64,000 bases of DNA from NCBI GenBank assembly GCA_035409945.1, contig DAONQC010000006.1, positions 12,570-76,569 on the forward strand, written 5' to 3'. Made by a program: the position numbers and the translations under genes. Positions 33,054 to 52,667 of the stretch are shown piece after piece. The stretch comes from Clostridia bacterium. Its GTDB lineage: Bacteria > Bacillota > Clostridia > Christensenellales > DTU072. The notes under the pieces are model-generated. The model was not told the origin of the DNA. It ran no database searches and saw only the letters and a list, made by a program, of their open reading frames with translations. Every line of letters begins with the position of its first letter. Positions within the stretch are counted from its first letter, which is position 1.

Positions 33054-34337
33054 TTATATCTCTACATTTATGGCTTTAAATACGATTGATTTACCTTCGT
33101 AATTAAGAGTGTATTTACCATCTTCATTTTTTGTGACTTTAGCGCCTAGAATTTGCTCATATGACACATCTACTTTTGTATTATCAATTTTCGTTACCGA
33201 ATACTCTGTATAAGGTTTAAACATGTTAAGTAAAATTAGCAAATCTTTTACATTAAACGAGCCATCAGTTTTTCCATCTACATCTGGGTCATAACGTTTC
33301 ATTGCAACATCAAAAGAGACAATTGCAGAGTGAAATACAGATATAGAAAGAACATTTTTGACTGACATACCGTCAGGGAAAGCGGGACCGTCTAAAATAG
33401 GTGTTCTAGTTAGTGTCCAGCTAGCGTCAGCATCACAAATGCCAGATGTTAATATGTATGCATTGCTATATATGTCGTAGGTTGCCCATTTTTGATATTC
33501 TCTGTATGTGTCAGAGCCTGAAATATAGTCCCAAGCTACTACACTCATTTTATCTATTTCTTGTACACCTTTTAATATGTTGGTTGGACCTATCATTTTT
33601 GAAATGTCTAACCCATAGTACGTGTAGTTACCGTCACTTTCTTCTTTTGTATATTGTCCGCCATATGTAGTAGAGTTTATTTCATCAAGAGAATAGAGGG
33701 AGTATACGGTAGGAGTCTTTAGTAACTCAGTAGAAAAATCGATTTTGTATAAATATTTAACCCAGGTGTTTGCAACTTGGTCATGGAATATAGCTCTTAA
33801 AGCACCACTGCCTGATTTTATTGTTAAAACTTCGCCGTCTAATTCAAGAGCAATTACCATCTTGCTCCCACGACCATCGCTATCGAATACTTCATCAGTG
33901 GCAACTGCTACGTAGCCATCTGTTCCATAAAGGGATAAACTTCCATATACATTAATTGGAGCACTTTCTGTATAGTCAGAAAGTAAGTCTTCTAAATATA
34001 CGCCTTTAACAGTATGTGGAATTAAATTACCATCATCGTCTTGTTTATCACTTGCAACAGCGGGGTTATCTTCATCAAATATAACGGGTTTAGTTTCATA
34101 AAGTGTTTTAATTGTAGATTTCTTTATTACAACATCTTCGAGTAAATTCCCATCTACTTTCTGTAATCCAGATAGCGTAAGGGTGTAGTCATCGTCCGTA
34201 ACGGGGGCAGTGTTATTAGTATTATTGGTATTATCAGGTTCAGTATCGGGCTTATCGTTACAACCGACAAAAAATGTCATAGAAATAATGAGTGCAAATA
34301 CAATACTAAAAAGAATAACAGTCTTAAGTTTTTTCAT
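33054..34337 (-). CDS. Lipoprotein with two copies of the shared module and a dockerin/EF-hand-like segment
   Basis: Lipobox FFVGC. VKGVYLEDLL...YGTDGYVAV...IALELDGEVL...GALRAIF...NTWVKYLYKIDF, and DVDGKTDGSFNVKDLLILL. The MKKLKT start (34337) follows GGGGAG. Confidence 0.6.
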   Translation of the reverse strand: MKKLKTVILFSIVFALIISMTFFVGCNDKPDTEPDNTNNTNNTAPVTDDDYTLTLSGLQKVDGNLLEDVVIKKSTIKTLYETKPVIFDEDNPAVASDKQDDDGNLIPHTVKGVYLEDLLSDYTESAPINVYGSLSLYGTDGYVAVATDEVFDSDGRGSKMVIALELDGEVLTIKSGSGALRAIFHDQVANTWVKYLYKIDFSTELLKTPTVYSLYSLDEINSTTYGGQYTKEESDGNYTYYGLDISKMIGPTNILKGVQEIDKMSVVAWDYISGSDTYREYQKWATYDIYSNAYILTSGICDADASWTLTRTPILDGPAFPDGMSVKNVLSISVFHSAIVSFDVAMKRYDPDVDGKTDGSFNVKDLLILLNMFKPYTEYSVTKIDNTKVDVSYEQILGAKVTKNEDGKYTLNYEGKSIVFKAINVEI

Positions 34338-34500
34338 AATAAAGAGCTCCCCATAAAATAAAAAGTTCACGTTCCCACGTGAAAAGAGCTCTTTAGAAGA
34401 GAGAGTGTTCTTTTCGCAATGGAAGGGTAATCCCTTTCGAAGTTACCCCCGGTCTAAACCCATAGCATTGCCTTAGGTGTTTAGACTCGAACATGTCTAT
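34338..34500 (-). promoter_or_regulatory. Structured 5' leader (riboswitch-like, class not recognised) of the ECF-lipoprotein operon
   Basis: 8-bp helix GTCTAAAC/GTTTAGAC (34452-34459 / 34479-34486), hairpin GGGTAA...TTACCC, possible pseudoknot GCAATG/CATTGC, terminator-like TTCACGT-GGGA-ACGTGAA plus T-run (34350-34383), and AAAGAGCTC able to pair with the GAGCTCTTT overlapping the RBS. Confidence 0.5.
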
Positions 34501-34530
34501 ATGATATATAAATATACAGTATTTTGTCAA
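34501..34530 (-). promoter_or_regulatory. Putative promoter of the ECF-lipoprotein operon
   Basis: Perfect TTGACA (34525-34530, minus strand), 18-nt spacer, TATCAT (34501-34506). Confidence 0.4.
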
Positions 34531-41359: not shown

Positions 41360-41518
41360 ATTTAAGTTCGATTTTACTACAAATTTTTAAATAATTACTT
41401 TGAATGAGAGAACCAAAACAAGTAGTTAATTTTGGCAGTTGTCGCATAAACTATATTGTTGCTTCTATACCATAAATATGCTACAATCTTGGTATAAAGG
41501 CAACAAGAGGTCTGAAAG

Positions 41519-42097
41519 ATGAATTATGAATCTAAAATCATTGACTATATGGAAAATAACGATGGATACATATCTAATAAAATGACAAAAAAATTAGGTA
41601 TTCCGACTATTTATTTGACTCGCATGGCAGAAAAAAAAGACATTCTCAAAGTTACAAGAGGCGTCTATATCTTGCCTAATATATTTGAAGATGAGTTGTT
41701 TATTAACTATCTAAGATATTCTAAAATTATATACTCTGGCAATACAGCGCTGGTTTTAAATAAAATGTCGAACCGGTCTTTGAAGGAGATAGAAGCCAAT
41801 GTTCCCATTAGTTATAACATACATAACAGCGTTACGTTTAAAACTAATAGAGTTAATAATCTTCGTTATACTCTTGGAAAATCTTTTATAAAAACTGATT
41901 TTGGCAATTTAGTACCAACATATAATAAAGAAAGGGTGCTCTGTGATATTTTTACTTTTGAAACATTAGATAATGAAGCATTGAATTATGCAATAAAATC
42001 AGCTAAAGAACAAAAGATAAACTATGAACAACTTTACGACTATTCTATAAAACTAGGCATATATGAAAAAATACGACTATTATTGGAGATCAGATAA
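41519..42097 (+). CDS. AbiEi-family antitoxin
   Basis: N-terminal wHTH (ISNKMTKKLGIPTIYLTRMAEKKDILKVTRGVYIL). Directly precedes an AbiEii-type gene. Confidence 0.75.
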   Translation: MNYESKIIDYMENNDGYISNKMTKKLGIPTIYLTRMAEKKDILKVTRGVYILPNIFEDELFINYLRYSKIIYSGNTALVLNKMSNRSLKEIEANVPISYNIHNSVTFKTNRVNNLRYTLGKSFIKTDFGNLVPTYNKERVLCDIFTFETLDNEALNYAIKSAKEQKINYEQLYDYSIKLGIYEKIRLLLEIR

Positions 42098-42098
42098 T

Positions 42099-43502
42099 AT
42101 GAATATTGACAAATTGAAAAACATAGTAGTTAATACTGCTAAAAAAGAGAACGTAACGGTGCAAGAAGTCTGGGACAAATATTTTTTTGACCAATTTTTA
42201 GTACGATTATCACAAAGCGAATATAAAGCCAATTTCATATTAAAAGGAGGTTTTTTGCTCGAAAATATTGTTGGTATAAAAAACAGAACTACGCTCGATT
42301 TGGATTTTAGTTATAGACTAGCAAAAATTAATAAAGAAGATTTACAACATAAAATATCGACAATTATAGCTGAAGATGTGAAAGATCAGATAAGCTTCGA
42401 ACTGAGAGATATCAAAAGTATTAATGAAGAAGGCAAATATGGAGGGTTTAGAATAAGAATTGATGGCAACACTGGGAATATAAGAAAAACATTTTCAATA
42501 GATGTTGTTAGTGGCGATATTATAACTCCTTATCCACAGCTTTTAGAGTATAAGACTGATATAAGGCAACAGACAATAAAGGTATATAGTTATAATAAGG
42601 AGACAATTTTGGCTGAAAAATTCCAAACAGTTATCAGTAGAGGAATTAACAACACTAGGATGAAAGATTTTTATGACATATGCATGCTAACTAATGACAA
42701 GAGTTTAGACAGAGAACTGTTGCATGATGTGTTAATTAATACATTTGAAAACAGGAAGACAAGCATCAAAGCAAGTGATATAGAGCCAGTAATTAGTGAT
42801 ATTATTAATTCTAAGCTATTAGAAAGACAGTTTAATGAGTATGTGCGTAAGGCGCAATTTGCTCGCGATTTAGAATATTCTAATGTTATAGATGCATTGG
42901 TTATAGCATTTAAATCGATTAAGTATATAAAAGAGATTAAGCTCAAGATAAAATCTTTGTTGATTATTAGACAGGGTGAAACGGAACAGAGTATAGCTGG
43001 TGGATGGTTTGATTCTCGGTTAACTCAAAGCGGTGTAACACAAATTACTCGTCTAAAGGATGAGATTTCAGAAAAAATTAAGGATTTAGAAGAAGTTTAT
43101 ATATTGTCCAGCGACTTAAATAGAGCAAGAGAAACAGTTAAGATATTATTCAATGATAAATATCCAATTAAGTATGACCAAAGGCTTCGTGAGAGTAATG
43201 ATGCTCACTTAACAAGTCTTGACGTAGATGCCACCAAAACGAAACATCATAATGAGCAGTTAGACAAAATAGAATTTGGAGAAAACTATCCTAACGAGGA
43301 ATCGGCCGAAGGATACTATAATCGAGTTTATGATTGTTTTTTAGGAATCAATGAGCAATATCAAAACAAGAATGTGGTTATCGTAACTCACGAAGGCGCG
43401 TATGGTATTATAAAATCTATAATTAATGGGACAGTATGGTCCAGTAAACAAAGGTATGTGCTGGGATGTTCAGAAGTTTTCGCATACCAAGTTCAGCCAT
43501 GA
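42099..43502 (+). CDS. AbiEii/AbiGii-family nucleotidyltransferase toxin fused to a histidine-phosphatase-like C-terminal domain
   Basis: ILKGGFLLE...RTTLDLDF and ILAEKFQTVISR are NTase motifs. The C-terminal 185 aa has LIIRQGETE..., SSDLNRARET and VTHEG (phosphoglycerate-mutase-type layout, with Q in place of the RHG His; CAG at 42972-42974). The ATG lies 2 nt after the abiEi stop. Confidence 0.75.
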   Translation: MNIDKLKNIVVNTAKKENVTVQEVWDKYFFDQFLVRLSQSEYKANFILKGGFLLENIVGIKNRTTLDLDFSYRLAKINKEDLQHKISTIIAEDVKDQISFELRDIKSINEEGKYGGFRIRIDGNTGNIRKTFSIDVVSGDIITPYPQLLEYKTDIRQQTIKVYSYNKETILAEKFQTVISRGINNTRMKDFYDICMLTNDKSLDRELLHDVLINTFENRKTSIKASDIEPVISDIINSKLLERQFNEYVRKAQFARDLEYSNVIDALVIAFKSIKYIKEIKLKIKSLLIIRQGETEQSIAGGWFDSRLTQSGVTQITRLKDEISEKIKDLEEVYILSSDLNRARETVKILFNDKYPIKYDQRLRESNDAHLTSLDVDATKTKHHNEQLDKIEFGENYPNEESAEGYYNRVYDCFLGINEQYQNKNVVIVTHEGAYGIIKSIINGTVWSSKQRYVLGCSEVFAYQVQP

Positions 43503-44059: not shown

Positions 44060-44983
44060 ATGAAAAAACAAGTTAAAATTATTATGGTAGTATTATGTAT
44101 CTGTGCTTTAGTTGGCACCATAGCCATAGGCCTAGCTGGATGCAAAAAAGATGCAGAAAAAGATATCACAGTCATATCAAGAGAAGATGGAAGTGGTACA
44201 CGAGATGCGTTTGACAGTCTCATTAAAAAAGACGGTGCAAGTTTGGTAAAAGATGCAAATGGAAAGAAATATACAACAAGCCCATTTGTTAAAAGTATTG
44301 AAATGCTAAGCAAAACTGGTGATGTTAAAACTAAAGTCTCATCTACCAAAACAGCTATTGGATATATATCCTTAGGTTCTTTAGATAATACAGTTAAGGC
44401 ATTAACCATTAACGGTGTAGTTGCAAGTTCTGAAAATGTATTAAATGGAACATATTTATTAAAGCGCCCGTTCGTTATAGTTACTTCAAATAGTACTACA
44501 TTAACCGCAGCAACAGATGACTTTGTTAAATATCTAAAAAGTTCACAAGCCCAAATCATAGTTAAAGGACAAAAGTATGTAGAGCAAGCATCTACTACAG
44601 CCTACACAGCACCTGCTACGGCAGTATCTGGAACTATATACATAAAGGGCTCGACGTCAGTTGATCCATTAATGGATAAGTTAATTGCAGACTATCAAAA
44701 AATAGGTGGAGCAAAAGTCAGTGGCATAGAGTTTGAAAAAGACGCACAAGGATCATCTCACGGTATAACCGCAGCAAAAGAGGATACTACGGGTAATGTG
44801 ATTGGTATGTCATCTTCAGCTATAAAAACAGCAGACGCAGGTAGCTTAAGCCAATTCAATATTGCATTAGATGCAGTTGCGGTAATAGTGCATAAGGATA
44901 ACGGCATACAGAATGTAACAATAGAACAATTATTTGATATCTACACTGGTGCTATAACGAAGTTCTCACAGATTACTGCATAA
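44060..44983 (+). CDS. pstS: Phosphate ABC transporter substrate-binding lipoprotein PstS (segment order permuted relative to B. subtilis/E. coli PstS)
   Basis: Lipobox LAGC. VISREDGSGTRDAF and AIGYISLG...NGTYLLKRPF come before IKGSTSVDPLMDKL...ALDAVAVIVHKDN...IEQLFDIYTG. Confidence 0.85.
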   Translation: MKKQVKIIMVVLCICALVGTIAIGLAGCKKDAEKDITVISREDGSGTRDAFDSLIKKDGASLVKDANGKKYTTSPFVKSIEMLSKTGDVKTKVSSTKTAIGYISLGSLDNTVKALTINGVVASSENVLNGTYLLKRPFVIVTSNSTTLTAATDDFVKYLKSSQAQIIVKGQKYVEQASTTAYTAPATAVSGTIYIKGSTSVDPLMDKLIADYQKIGGAKVSGIEFEKDAQGSSHGITAAKEDTTGNVIGMSSSAIKTADAGSLSQFNIALDAVAVIVHKDNGIQNVTIEQLFDIYTGAITKFSQITA

Positions 44984-45105
44984 GGATGAGGTTACTCCTT
45001 AACGGGAATTATTAAAACAACACCTAGCACTTGTTATTTAGACAGGTGCTAGGTAGGTTCATTAAAGATGTAGGGAGGGCTTTGATGAACGACTAACTAG
45101 ATAGA

Positions 45106-47058
45106 ATGAATCAAGAAAAGACAGATAAAGTAAATTTAAAAATTAATAAAGAATTAGGGATGAAGATTTTGTTTGGGATAGCAGCGTGTGTTGCTATATT
45201 AGCCACAATAACTATCTTCATCTTTTTATTTATAAAAGGCGTCCCCGCGATTAGAAGAATTGGCTTGGGAAACTTTTTATTTGGTCAAACCTGGCGACCA
45301 GATACGCATGATACATATGAAGGTGAGATATCTGGGATTTATGGGATATTCCCTATGATTATAGGGACTTTGTATGCTACGGTAGGAGCTGTAATAATTG
45401 GTGGAATATTAGGATTTTTTACTGCTGTATTTCTATCAAGGTTCTGCCCGCCAAAAATAAAGCCAATTTTAACCCAGCTTGTGAATTTGCTTGCAGGGAT
45501 TCCTTCAGTTGTGTATGGATTTTTTGGCATGCAACTATTACTTCCTCTACTTGGAGAAGTTTCGCCAAACGGCTCAGGTTCTGGGATTTTAGCGGTATCT
45601 ATCATATTAGGTGTTATGATTTTACCTACCATTGTTGCACTCTCAAAAACTTCTATCGATGCAGTCCCTGAAGCATATTATACTGGTGCTCGTGCAATAG
45701 GTGATAGCCATGCAGGAGCGGTGTTTGGAGCAGTGGTTCCAGCAGCAAAGTCTGGTATAGCGGCAAGCTTTATTTTAGGGATAGGCAGGGCTGTCGGAGA
45801 GACTATGGCGGTTATCATGCTTGCTGGAAATAACCCAGTTATCCCTACAACGCTATTTTCATCCTTTAGAACAATGACAGCTAATGTTGTTCTGGAAATG
45901 GGCTATGCAGGTGAATTACAACTTGGTGCATTAATAGCAACTGGGTGTATATTATTTTTCTTTGTGTTAGTAATTAACACACTCTTCGGATTAATACGCG
46001 GAAGCTCTGAAAAAGTCGAAGGGAAAAACAAGCTAGGTTTGTTTATCAAAAAGATACAGAGAAAAAGGTCAACTAACAACCTCTCTGATTTAGCAAGTAA
46101 CATATCTGAAAATCGAGTCGATAACATTAAAAAAGAATCTAAATTCAAGCAAGTTATGAAGGGCGTAAAAAGAGATATACAGCGATTTAGAGAGGGGTTT
46201 CAATCTTTATTAAACCGTAGGAACAAGGTGATTATTCAGATAAAGACGATACTTTGTTATGTTTGTACTATAGTGGCTGTAACTGCACTTATTACTATTG
46301 TGGTATTTATATTTGTGAAAGGAGTGCCGAATATTACTTGGGACTTGATAAGCCGCAATTTTAGTTATGGTGAAGATCCAACCATAATGCCATCTATAGT
46401 TGTTACCATAATGCTGATAGCTTTAAGTATGGTAATAGCTTTACCTTTAGGTATTTGCACAGCGGTCTTTTTATCAGAATATACTAAAAAAGGCAATAAA
46501 TTTATTAAGATAATACGTGGTGCACTAGAAATATTATCGGGCATCCCTTCCATCGTTTATGGACTGTTCGGTATGGTCTTTTTCTGTGTAATGCTGAAGC
46601 TTGGAACTAGTGTTCTTGCCGGTTCGTTGACGGTAGCGATTATGATAATACCAGTTATATGTCGCTCAACTGAAGAGAGCTTAAAGATGGTACCACAAAG
46701 TTATCGAGAAGGTAGTTTTGCGCTTGGCGCCGGTAAGGCTAGAACTATTTTTAAAGTTGTTATACCTTCTGCTATGCCAGGCATTTTAGCTGCTACCATA
46801 TTAGCGGTTGGGAGGGTTATAAGCGAGTCTGCGCCGCTAATGTTCACTATGGGCGCATCGCTTAAAGGAGTTCCTCGAACCGGTTACTTAGGTAGTGGGA
46901 CATCTTTAGCTGTTGCATTATATATATTAGCAGGGGAAGGATTGTACATAAAAGAAGCTTATGCGACTGCCTGTGTGCTCATATTAATAATACTTACACT
47001 CAACATATTATCAACACTGCTCGTCAGCAGACTGCAAAAGAAGTTCGTTGGAAAATAA
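45106..47058 (+). CDS. Fused PstC-PstA phosphate ABC permease
   Basis: Two MetI-type permease halves (EAA-like AYYTGARAIG... and SYREGSFALGAGK...) joined by a basic linker of about 70 aa. Confidence 0.85.
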   Translation: MNQEKTDKVNLKINKELGMKILFGIAACVAILATITIFIFLFIKGVPAIRRIGLGNFLFGQTWRPDTHDTYEGEISGIYGIFPMIIGTLYATVGAVIIGGILGFFTAVFLSRFCPPKIKPILTQLVNLLAGIPSVVYGFFGMQLLLPLLGEVSPNGSGSGILAVSIILGVMILPTIVALSKTSIDAVPEAYYTGARAIGDSHAGAVFGAVVPAAKSGIAASFILGIGRAVGETMAVIMLAGNNPVIPTTLFSSFRTMTANVVLEMGYAGELQLGALIATGCILFFFVLVINTLFGLIRGSSEKVEGKNKLGLFIKKIQRKRSTNNLSDLASNISENRVDNIKKESKFKQVMKGVKRDIQRFREGFQSLLNRRNKVIIQIKTILCYVCTIVAVTALITIVVFIFVKGVPNITWDLISRNFSYGEDPTIMPSIVVTIMLIALSMVIALPLGICTAVFLSEYTKKGNKFIKIIRGALEILSGIPSIVYGLFGMVFFCVMLKLGTSVLAGSLTVAIMIIPVICRSTEESLKMVPQSYREGSFALGAGKARTIFKVVIPSAMPGILAATILAVGRVISESAPLMFTMGASLKGVPRTGYLGSGTSLAVALYILAGEGLYIKEAYATACVLILIILTLNILSTLLVSRLQKKFVGK

Positions 47059-51988: not shown

Positions 51989-52064
51989 TGGTGGGAACAA
52001 CAGGGCTCGAACCTGTGACCCCATGCGTGTAAAGCATGTGCTCTCCCAGCTGAGCTATGCTCCC
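51989..52064 (-). tRNA. tRNA-Val (anticodon UAC)
   Basis: GGGAGCATAGCTCAGCTGGGAGAGCACATGCTTTACACGCATGGGGTCACAGGTTCGAGCCCTGTTGTTCCCACCA. Cloverleaf is foldable and CCA is encoded. Confidence 0.9.
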
Positions 52065-52231
52065 ATCGAACATTTAGCGCATGTAGAGAAGGTCTAAACA
52101 TTTCTCTTGCTATGGATAAGCATAACAAAGCGAGAGTTAAAAGTCTAGTATTTTTTTATTTATCATAATAACATTGAGACCGAGACCTTAAATTGATTGA
52201 AAATATTTTGGTATAAAAGGCAGTGCTACAT

Positions 52232-52360
52232 TTCGATTATAGTCGAAGAAAATATGTAAATTTATAAAAGTTTTGATTACAGTCGAAAAATATAGGTAAA
52301 TTAGAAAAAGTCTGGTTATGGTCGAAGAGAAGATGGTGGTGGCAAAGATTTGGAAGTGTT
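52232..52360 (+). repeat. Three degenerate tandem repeats of about 42 nt between tRNA-Glu and tRNA-Val
   Basis: TTCGATTATAGTCGAAGAAAATATGTAAATT... / TTTGATTACAGTCGAAAAATATAGGTAAATT... / CTGGTTATGGTCGAAGAGAAGATGG... Confidence 0.7.
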
Positions 52361-52373
52361 TTAAACTTAACCA

Positions 52374-52404
52374 TATAAAAAGCATCCGTCGAAATGCGGA
52401 TGCT
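52374..52404 (-). terminator. Terminator after the fMet-Met-Glu tRNA cluster
   Basis: AGCATCCG (52381-52388) / CGGATGCT (52397-52404). The minus strand continues TTTTAT. Confidence 0.6.
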
Positions 52405-52416
52405 TTGTATATTCTT

Positions 52417-52492
52417 TGGTGACCTCAAGGGGATTCGAACCCCTACTGTCGCCGTGAAAGGGCGGTGTCCTAACCTACTAGACGATGAGGCC
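52417..52492 (-). tRNA. tRNA-Glu (anticodon UUC)
   Basis: GGCCTCATCGTCTAGTAGGTTAGGACACCGCCCTTTCACGGCGACAGTAGGGGTTCGAATCCCCTTGAGGTCACCA. Confidence 0.9.
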
Positions 52493-52501
52493 ATCAACGT
52501 T

Positions 52502-52578
52502 TGGTAGCGGCGGTCGGAGTCGAACCAACGACCTGCCGGGTATGAACCGGCCGCTCTAACCAACTAAGCTACGCCGCC
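52502..52578 (-). tRNA. tRNA with CAU anticodon (elongator Met, or Ile2 if lysidinylated)
   Basis: GGCGGCGTAGCTTAGTTGGTTAGAGCGGCCGGTTCATACCCGGCAGGTCGTTGGTTCGACTCCGACCGCCGCTACCA. The anticodon stem lacks the three G-C pairs of initiators. Confidence 0.85.
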
Positions 52579-52592
52579 AAGATTGATGGTAT

Positions 52593-52667
52593 TGGTAGCG
52601 GGGGAGGGATTCGAACCCACGACCTCTGGGTTATGAGCCCAGCAAGCTACCTCTGCTCCACCCCGCG
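52593..52667 (-). tRNA. Initiator tRNA-fMet (CAU)
   Basis: CGCGGGGTGGAGCAGAGGTAGCTTGCTGGGCTCATAACCCAGAGGTCGTGGGTTCGAATCCCTCCCCCGCTACCA. Has a 1-72 mismatch (C1/U72) and GGG/CCC in the anticodon stem. Confidence 0.9.

Follow-up and report, generated by a model that had tools for sequence, protein, structure and literature searches.

Why should a toxin that transfers nucleotides carry a histidine phosphatase, and why should that phosphatase lack its nucleophilic histidine? These questions are raised by a two-gene locus in the metagenome-assembled genome (MAG) of a low-GC "Clostridia bacterium". The locus lies in a stretch of 64,000 nucleotides (contig DAONQC010000006.1, positions 12,570 to 76,569), which is called the window here. 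Its first gene, abiEi, encodes an antitoxin. The second encodes an AbiEii nucleotidyltransferase (NTase) toxin with a domain of the histidine phosphatase superfamily at its C-terminus. The Arg-His-Gly (RHG) motif of such domains reads Arg-Gln-Gly (RQG) in the window, as had been pointed out in an original prediction made from the DNA letters. By its sequence, the locus appears to be a chromosomal, autoregulated two-gene toxin-antitoxin (TA) module of the AbiE/MenAT type (COG5340-DUF1814), with operator binding predicted. The identity and architecture of the module are nearly certain, and the AbiE-type pair named in the original prediction is confirmed for both genes by matches to Pfam, PADLOC and structures from Streptococcus agalactiae.

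A toxin fused to a histidine phosphatase

The fusion protein matches Pfam AbiEii over residues 32-254 (3.8e-37) and PADLOC AbiEii over residues 2-276 (2e-83). The hG[GS] and [DE]x[DE] motifs and the C-terminal K/D motif of the DUF1814 polymerase beta-type NTases are present. In the window toxin, the NTase motifs are K49-G50-G51, R63-T64-T65, D67/D69, and K189/D190/D193. K49-G50-G51, R63, T65, D67, D69, K189, D190, and D193 are invariant across the 36 sequences of the fusion family. In an alignment with AbiEii of S. agalactiae (9HLO_B, 1.2e-45) that has no gaps in this region, R63-T64-T65 of the window falls opposite R63-S64-T65, with the residue identities of the S. agalactiae protein taken from a preprint (10.64898/2026.01.19.700257). 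By alignment, the candidate Ser/Thr phosphoacceptor equivalent to T65 of AbiEii and S78 of MenT3 is present in the window NTase. Most AbiEii matches in the homolog searches are single-domain proteins of about 275-290 aa. At 467 aa, the window toxin departs from the usual single-domain architecture of 260-300 aa.

The remainder of the protein matches Pfam His_Phos_1 over residues 287-444 (2e-21), which is above the gathering score. AlphaFold2, run on the family alignment, gave a model that scores well in each domain and over the full chain, with a predicted local distance difference test score (pLDDT) of 88 and a predicted template modelling score (pTM) of 0.87. In Foldseek searches, the N-terminal half matched MenT3/TglT and the C-terminal half matched PhoE, PspA, CobC, and GpgP, with a probability of 1.00 to many members of the phosphatase superfamily. 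PhoE and CobC were matched at the sequence level as well. The histidine phosphatase layout read by the original prediction is borne out by these Pfam and Foldseek matches. A PADLOC match to "Cyclase" (E = 0.0011, residues 299-379) and a Pfam match to YAF2_RYBP (E = 0.044) were dismissed as noise.

In the catalytic core of the C-terminal domain, Q292 (codon CAG) takes the place of the nucleophilic His expected in RHG. The other residues that the original prediction took to be retained, the two arginines (R291 and R342), the proton-donor glutamate (E365), and the second histidine (H431), are present as claimed and are invariant across the family alignment. With Q292 as its nucleophile position, the window domain is a homolog of the fold and is not to be listed among the active histidine phosphatases.

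Could the fusion, or its glutamine, be an artefact in which a frameshift or assembly error joined two genes or a sequencing error produced the Gln? There is almost no chance of this. The continuous reading frame is common to all 36 sequences (35 homologs with 33-52% identity, and the window). The product of the window gene is identical to NCBI HQC55019.1, which comes from the MAG of a "Clostridia bacterium", and the same protein or a Y248S variant recurs in more than 40 assembly blocks (JGI, ENA, Logan, and NCBI). The CAG codon is also present in two independent contigs, which show 1 single-nucleotide polymorphism (SNP) relative to the window in 3 kb. No support for an artefact was found, and the splitting of one relative (P0032) by a stop codon indicates that fused and split states interconvert. 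The original prediction had allowed for a frameshift or assembly error. The continuous architecture in 35 independent homologs and the recurrence across assemblies show the fusion to be genuine.

The PF08843 and PF00300 architecture recurs, at the same length and with 33-52% identity, in about 37 clusters formed at 90% identity. When 1.84 billion representatives clustered at 50% identity were searched exhaustively with a profile, about eight full-length fusion representatives were found, together with fragments. Judging from these searches, the AbiEii-His_Phos fusion family is real but rare. The family-alignment scan of genome contigs used patterns from the NTase domain; its listed matches are single-domain AbiEii, and it is silent on the frequency of the fusion in GTDB. 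Both halves are already labelled by annotation pipelines. No account of the fusion turned up when the full-text literature was searched for AbiEii or DUF1814 in combination with histidine phosphatase, phosphoglycerate mutase, or phosphatase. The architecture, suggested to be possibly new, does seem to lack a published description, but with about 37 clusters it is not unique.

Other long AbiEii proteins were seen as well. P0213 (451 aa), P0147, P0159, and P0248 have RelA_SpoT, DUF4253, LOG-like, and partial UDP-glucose dehydrogenase additions. Some AbiEii proteins with such other C-terminal additions may be gene-call chimeras. A RelA_SpoT (alarmone-synthetase/toxSAS-like) fusion would couple two types of toxin that modify tRNA 3' ends.

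Probable decay of the phosphatase domain in the window lineage

In the 36-sequence alignment, the catalytic His is present in all 35 other family members, as RHG in 34 and as RHA in one. The original prediction had tied RQG to a phosphate-binding module; set against these 35 sequences, RQG looks instead like a lineage-specific and probably inactivating derived state. The comparison was then made at positions whose conservation in the 35 other sequences is 90% or more, of which 50 lie in the NTase domain and 41 in the phosphatase domain. The window differs at one of the 50 NTase positions and at 11 of the 41 phosphatase positions (H292Q, D295T, S304F, N368D, G369A, F379T, F388L, L391I, G400E, P403A, and N449S). 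Other members have between 0 and 5 altered phosphatase positions each. Dividing C-domain identity by N-domain identity gives 0.81 for the window and its relatives and 1.06 +/- 0.11 for other family pairs. It appears that accelerated change is confined to the phosphatase domain and that the Gln accompanies it.

In a neighbor-joining (NJ) tree of the NTase domains, drawn without bootstrap, the window copy lies deep in the fusion clade beside P0002, P0008, and P0011, and many RHG lineages branch before it. The window copy is nested in an RHG clade, and therefore the Gln is taken to be a secondary loss. On this evidence, it is probable that the Gln is derived and that the phosphatase domain of the window is catalytically impaired. 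The antitoxin, operator, NTase, and Thr65 all look intact in the same copy.

The window lineage does not seem to be alone in losing the phosphatase. In P0032 (L091 1263-2666; also L092 and L093), an in-frame TAA (GAA to TAA) lies in the inter-domain linker in three samples. The gene is thereby divided into an AbiEii open reading frame (ORF) of 267 aa and, 33 nt further on without a change of frame, an intact ORF for the RHG phosphatase. The fusion relative P0039 ends at the linker, and the single-domain proteins P0040 and P0042 nest within the fusion clade of the NTase tree. The phosphatase appears to have been lost recurrently while the NTase and AbiEi persisted, and this pattern fits a phosphatase that activates the toxin and does not restrain it. 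Repeated loss would be consistent with domain loss that lowers toxicity instead of unleashing it.

A different fate of the window copy, close to the idea of the original prediction, would be that the Q292 domain is a neofunctionalized pseudo-phosphatase that acts as a sensor or clamp for a phosphate ligand, such as phosphorylated T65 (held as a trap), a nucleotide, or an RNA end. This is improbable. The phosphate-pocket residues R291, R342, E365, and H431 are all kept, the frame of 187 codons is intact in an AT-rich gene, the Q292 allele has become fixed in its population and is found widely there, and the remaining module, including a covarying operator, looks functional. However, the changes at ten further positions with at least 90% conservation resemble relaxed constraint and not a targeted switch, and Gly and Pro were lost in two loops (RECNNGDL to RESNDAHL and YPNGESP to YPNEESA). 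Only a single lineage has this state; in others, the domain is truncated outright. With 1 SNP in 3 kb, the population is clonal and does not provide evidence of purifying selection on the domain.

The antitoxin and its operator

The AbiEi ORF matches Pfam AbiEi_4 (4.6e-7) and, over its full length, PADLOC AbiEi (1.2e-40). It also matches the sequences of the S. agalactiae AbiEi structures (6Y8Q and 9HLO_A) at about 1e-24. The window antitoxin was aligned with those of seven related loci, four of which carry intact RHG fusions. It has 61-71% identity to six of the seven and 41% to the last (L008). The positions of the S. agalactiae loop D85-E86-I87 are N-R-S in the window, within S-N-R-S-L. S-N-R-S-L is found in six of the eight aligned loci, and the other two have T-N-R-Q-L (L008) and S-N-K-S-L (L094). 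From this alignment, the loop appears to be conserved within the fusion family but chemically different from that of S. agalactiae. Single loop substitutions are tolerated in S. agalactiae AbiEi.

The promoter of the module is embedded in a palindrome. The -10 box of the window lies between the two palindrome arms, TTGTTGCTTCTATACCA and TGGTATAAAGGCAACAA, and the left arm includes a -35-like element. The layout TGTTGCTTnTGTGCC - TATAAT - GGCACAnAAGCAACA is kept 5' of abiEi in six homologous loci, and a palindromic operator flanks the -10 box in all loci with aligned upstream DNA. The inner arm bases of the window are altered on both arms, from GTGCC/GGCAC to ATACC/GGTAT, and the palindrome is preserved. 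According to a review, abiE is autoregulated by AbiEi at promoter inverted repeats, and the window operator fits this description. By analogy with the S. agalactiae system, AbiEi would bind the promoter palindrome.

Known systems compared

The S. agalactiae AbiEi-AbiEii system (9HLO and 6Y8Q), a proposed type VII TA system, has its genes in the same order as the window, with abiEi upstream of an abutting or overlapping toxin gene. Its antitoxin matches that of the window at 1e-24 and its NTase at 1e-45 to 7.5e-75. The R63-[S/T]64-T65 phosphoacceptor, the DxD motif, the K/D residues, and a promoter inverted-repeat operator are shared. Besides the antitoxin loop described above, the two systems differ in that the window toxin has an extra histidine phosphatase domain of 187 aa. 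At least in vitro, S. agalactiae AbiEii relies on a separate PP2C-type phosphatase, SaSTP.

The MenA3-MenT3 (TakA-TglT) and MenA1-MenT1 systems of Mycobacterium tuberculosis share the DUF1814 NTase fold (Foldseek 6J7P and 8XHR). The phospho-switch Ser/Thr of the MenT toxins lies two residues before the first Asp of DxD, as in the window, and a reactivating phosphatase has been postulated for them. In contrast to the window toxin, to which they have about 15% sequence identity, they are single-domain proteins without a fused phosphatase.

The C-terminal domain can be compared with the branch-1 histidine phosphatases PhoE (1H2E/1EBB), the phosphoserine phosphatase PspA (4IJ5), and CobC (3HJG and 6NRU). 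These have the same fold and the same order of residues, R-H-G ... R ... E ... H, with family profile matches of 1e-15 to 1e-20 and TM-scores of 0.6-0.74 to the targets. They are stand-alone metabolic enzymes, whereas the window domain is fused to a toxin and is without the nucleophilic His.

Possible role of the fused phosphatase

In S. agalactiae, AbiEi binds AbiEii and induces autophosphorylation of T65, by which NTase activity is abolished (10.64898/2026.01.19.700257). The PP2C Ser/Thr phosphatase SaSTP removes the T65 phosphate in vitro and restores the activity of AbiEii (10.64898/2026.01.19.700257). The complex of the two proteins is PDB 9HLO. AbiEii adds UTP or CTP to tRNA 3' ends, with UTP preferred (10.64898/2026.01.19.700257). 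The statement that known AbiEii toxins are GTP-dependent, which was part of the original prediction, is outdated in light of this UTP preference and of neutralization through T65. A 2020 paper on TglT/MenT3 postulates an "unidentified phosphatase", PstP being slow and unspecific, and the 2026 AbiEii preprint also calls the phosphatase that re-arms the toxin unknown (10.64898/2026.01.19.700257).

The off-switch of these toxins is a phosphate with a missing eraser, and therefore the fused phosphatase may be understood most simply as a dedicated eraser. AbiEi would repress the operon. It would also bind the toxin, which would then, as assumed here from S. agalactiae, be induced to autophosphorylate at Thr65 in the active site of its NTase and thereby be silenced. 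The fused phosphatase, with its complete R-H-R-E-H set in every other member, could take the phosphate off Thr65, either in cis or, between molecules, in trans. Once AbiEi has been lost or titrated away, as might happen in phage infection, stockpiled toxin could be re-armed quickly and without new synthesis. The re-armed toxin would extend tRNA 3'-CCA ends and halt translation. In the window copy, the eraser would be disabled, leaving a toxin that can be silenced as before but has lost the means to re-arm itself. A host phosphatase would be needed, or the toxin would stay latent.

By analogy with S. agalactiae, a built-in eraser of phosphorylated Thr65 that has been inactivated in the window lineage is the best explanation overall, though our belief in it and our doubt are evenly balanced. 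As a role for the fusion family, erasure of the Thr65 phosphate is proposed tentatively and with doubt somewhat outweighing belief. The original prediction offered substrate recognition, a sensor function, or a second activity for the appended module. Erasing the toxin's own phosphate is a more specific proposal than any of the three. The fusions might further be self-resetting type VII TA systems that combine an antitoxin-induced autokinase as writer, a T65 switch, and an eraser within a single two-gene module, with the Q292 copy as a substrate-trapping pseudo-phosphatase that clamps the phosphorylated active-site loop or a phosphorylated ligand, so that the toxin is wired differently and latched more tightly. 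We consider this combination quite improbable.

Several points weigh against a Thr65 eraser. The key mechanistic source is a preprint (10.64898/2026.01.19.700257). The nearest solved or stand-alone relatives, PspA, CobC, PhoE, and GpgP, are small-molecule phosphatases. The matches of the C-domain profile include thousands of phosphatases (about 180-230 aa, about 40% identity) that stand alone in housekeeping contexts, and an abundant example lies between transglycosylase and methyltransferase genes. No family-type His_Phos gene was found within +/-5 kb of 80 listed single-domain AbiEii loci, and phosphatase families are absent from the top 25 Pfam families among the immediate downstream neighbors of 46 of these loci. 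A general linkage between AbiEii and phosphatases is not supported. The acidic loop D85/E86/I87 that is needed for full antitoxicity in S. agalactiae is replaced throughout the aligned loci. The C-domain ORF of the window is still open, but this is too weak an indication to tell recent decay from retained function, since after 20-30 neutral substitutions a frame would remain free of stops with a probability of about 0.15-0.3. In fructose-2,6-bisphosphatase, mutants of the nucleophilic His keep partial activity, so that a dead window domain is likely and not certain.

Two further proteins, P0232 (L104 4001-5188) and P0204 (395-402 aa), also count against the eraser. They keep RHG and have lost the T65 and DxD equivalents of their degenerate NTase-like N-terminal domain (for example "...PRAGLVFSP..."), and therefore their phosphatase would have another substrate or act in trans. 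Their state is the mirror image of the window copy. An unannotated gene of 228 aa lies 2 nt upstream of P0232. The upstream partners of P0232 and of the stand-alone phosphatase P0250 had no Pfam or PADLOC matches.

Is the superfamily suited to a protein substrate? SixA, PGAM5, and Sts-1 are protein-directed histidine phosphatases, and the superfamily can thus dephosphorylate proteins, as an eraser requires. None of the three was among the top 50 Foldseek and top 60 profile matches. SixA gave a weak NCBIfam match to the fusion (E = 0.057).

The same relatives and the two proteins without a phosphorylatable site raise a second possibility, that the phosphatase acts on a nucleic acid or nucleotide. 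It could clear tRNA 3'- or 2'-phosphates for the NTase, or it could be a second effector directed at small molecules, and it would have been lost in the window copy. CobC, PhoE, PspA, and GpgP, the closest characterized relatives, cleave small phosphomonoesters, including the nucleotide-like alpha-ribazole phosphate. The phosphatase clade is mostly stand-alone and housekeeping-like, and at L103 (3174-4741) the stand-alone phosphatase P0292 (246 aa) lies 24 nt 3' of an Nmad3 (nucleotide modification associated domain 3) gene. P0232 and P0204 agree with such a role as well, in keeping their phosphatase without a phosphorylatable NTase site. A precedent is the bacterial CCA-adding enzyme, which pairs a tRNA 3'-end NTase with an HD-domain phosphatase/phosphodiesterase. 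To our knowledge, no histidine phosphatase acts on RNA 3' ends, and this counts against the idea. A toxin would also gain little from repairing its own substrates, and the recurrent loss of the domain with the NTase kept shows it to be dispensable for the core toxin. Finally, a nucleotide or RNA substrate leaves unexplained why the fusion was made to a toxin family that is silenced by a phosphate and whose eraser is missing. An action on nucleotides or RNA is a serious alternative, though an unlikely one.

Some neighboring genes of these phosphatases were also observed. DUF7662 and DUF4357 genes lie upstream of the Nmad3-P0292 pair, and the phosphatase may here be part of a further conflict system. 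P0294 (241 aa) joins a RelB-antitoxin domain (Pfam, 1.8e-14) to a His_Phos domain of the same clade (5e-32) and is possibly an enzymatic antitoxin; it is on a short contig. On four contigs (L001-L004), a LigT/2H-phosphoesterase gene of the 2'-5' RNA ligase family lies about 1.8 kb 3' of the P0005 fusion on the opposite strand. Although LigT is an RNA-end enzyme, its presence there is probably a coincidence.

Gene calls and genomic context

The coordinates of the module and of other features in the window are given in Table 1. The toxin reading frame is open on the + strand from 42063 to 43502. The ATG at 42099 is the homologous toxin start and was chosen because of the Shine-Dalgarno sequence, the homolog N-termini MNI(D/E)KLK, and the NCBI call of 467 aa. 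For the same reasons, the ATG at 42063 (479 aa, JGI call) was dropped. The toxin ATG sits 1 nt after the antitoxin TAA (42095-42097), and not 2 nt as was previously claimed.

The AbiEi gene is directly upstream in all three of the intact fusions for which genomic context was examined. The flanking genes are housekeeping genes that differ by locus, a pst operon in the window and V-ATPase, ribonucleotide reductase, or tRNA synthetase genes elsewhere. AbiEi is found upstream in these varied neighborhoods, and therefore the abiE unit is a small mobile two-gene module. It is not in an obvious defense island. In the window, the phosphate-transport operon lies directly 3' of the module. A molybdenum-cofactor (Moco) riboswitch, upstream of a minus-strand ORF, and four clustered tRNA genes are also present.

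Table 1. Coordinates of the abiE module, its domains and signals, and other features of the window.
Feature	Position	Strand	Details
Promoter and operator of the module	41456-41506	+	17-nt inverted repeat, arms 88% complementary
Left palindrome arm	41456-41472		
-35-like element	41459-41464		TTGCTT
-10 box	41482-41487		TACAAT
Right palindrome arm	41490-41506		
abiEi	41519-42097	+	192 aa; COG5340-type winged helix-turn-helix antitoxin and predicted autorepressor; Pfam, PADLOC, PDB-sequence matches
Shine-Dalgarno sequence	42085-42088	+	GGAG, 10 nt 5' of toxin ATG 42099; direct sequence reading
Fusion gene, AbiEii NTase toxin and C-terminal His_Phos_1	42099-43502	+	467 aa and stop
NTase (DUF1814/AbiEii) domain	42099-42938	+	aa 1-280; Pfam, PADLOC, alignment to 9HLO_B
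T65 codon	42291-42293		Candidate phosphoacceptor
D67/D69 codons	42297-42305		
His_Phos_1 domain	42954-43499	+	aa 286-467; Pfam, Foldseek, PDB matches
R291-Q292-G293 codons	42969-42977		Q292 (CAG) at 42972-42974
R342 codon	43122-43124		
E365 codon	43191-43193		
H431 codon	43389-43391		
Phosphate-transport operon	44060-47058	+	
PstS-like binding protein	44060-44983	+	
Fused PstC-PstA permease-like ORF	45106-47058	+	650 aa
Minus-strand ORF	33054-34370	-	
Moco riboswitch	34391-34504	-	47 bits, gathering score 36
Four tRNA genes	51992-52667	-	

Significance

The DUF1814/AbiEii/MenT toxins are among the most widespread TA and abortive-infection effectors and include the MenT toxins of M. tuberculosis. 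Their off-switch, phosphorylation of the active-site Ser/Thr, was found only recently. Finding such a toxin naturally joined to a phosphatase hints, in the manner of a Rosetta stone, that dephosphorylation may be built into the activation cycle, and the fusion is a compact test system for this idea. The family also supplies natural mutants, in which the phosphatase is predicted to be nucleophile-dead (the window), is split by a nonsense codon (P0032), or is deleted (P0039, P0040, and P0042). Should nucleotides or RNA ends prove to be the substrate of the phosphatase, the family would have a second activity coupled to toxins that act on tRNA ends.

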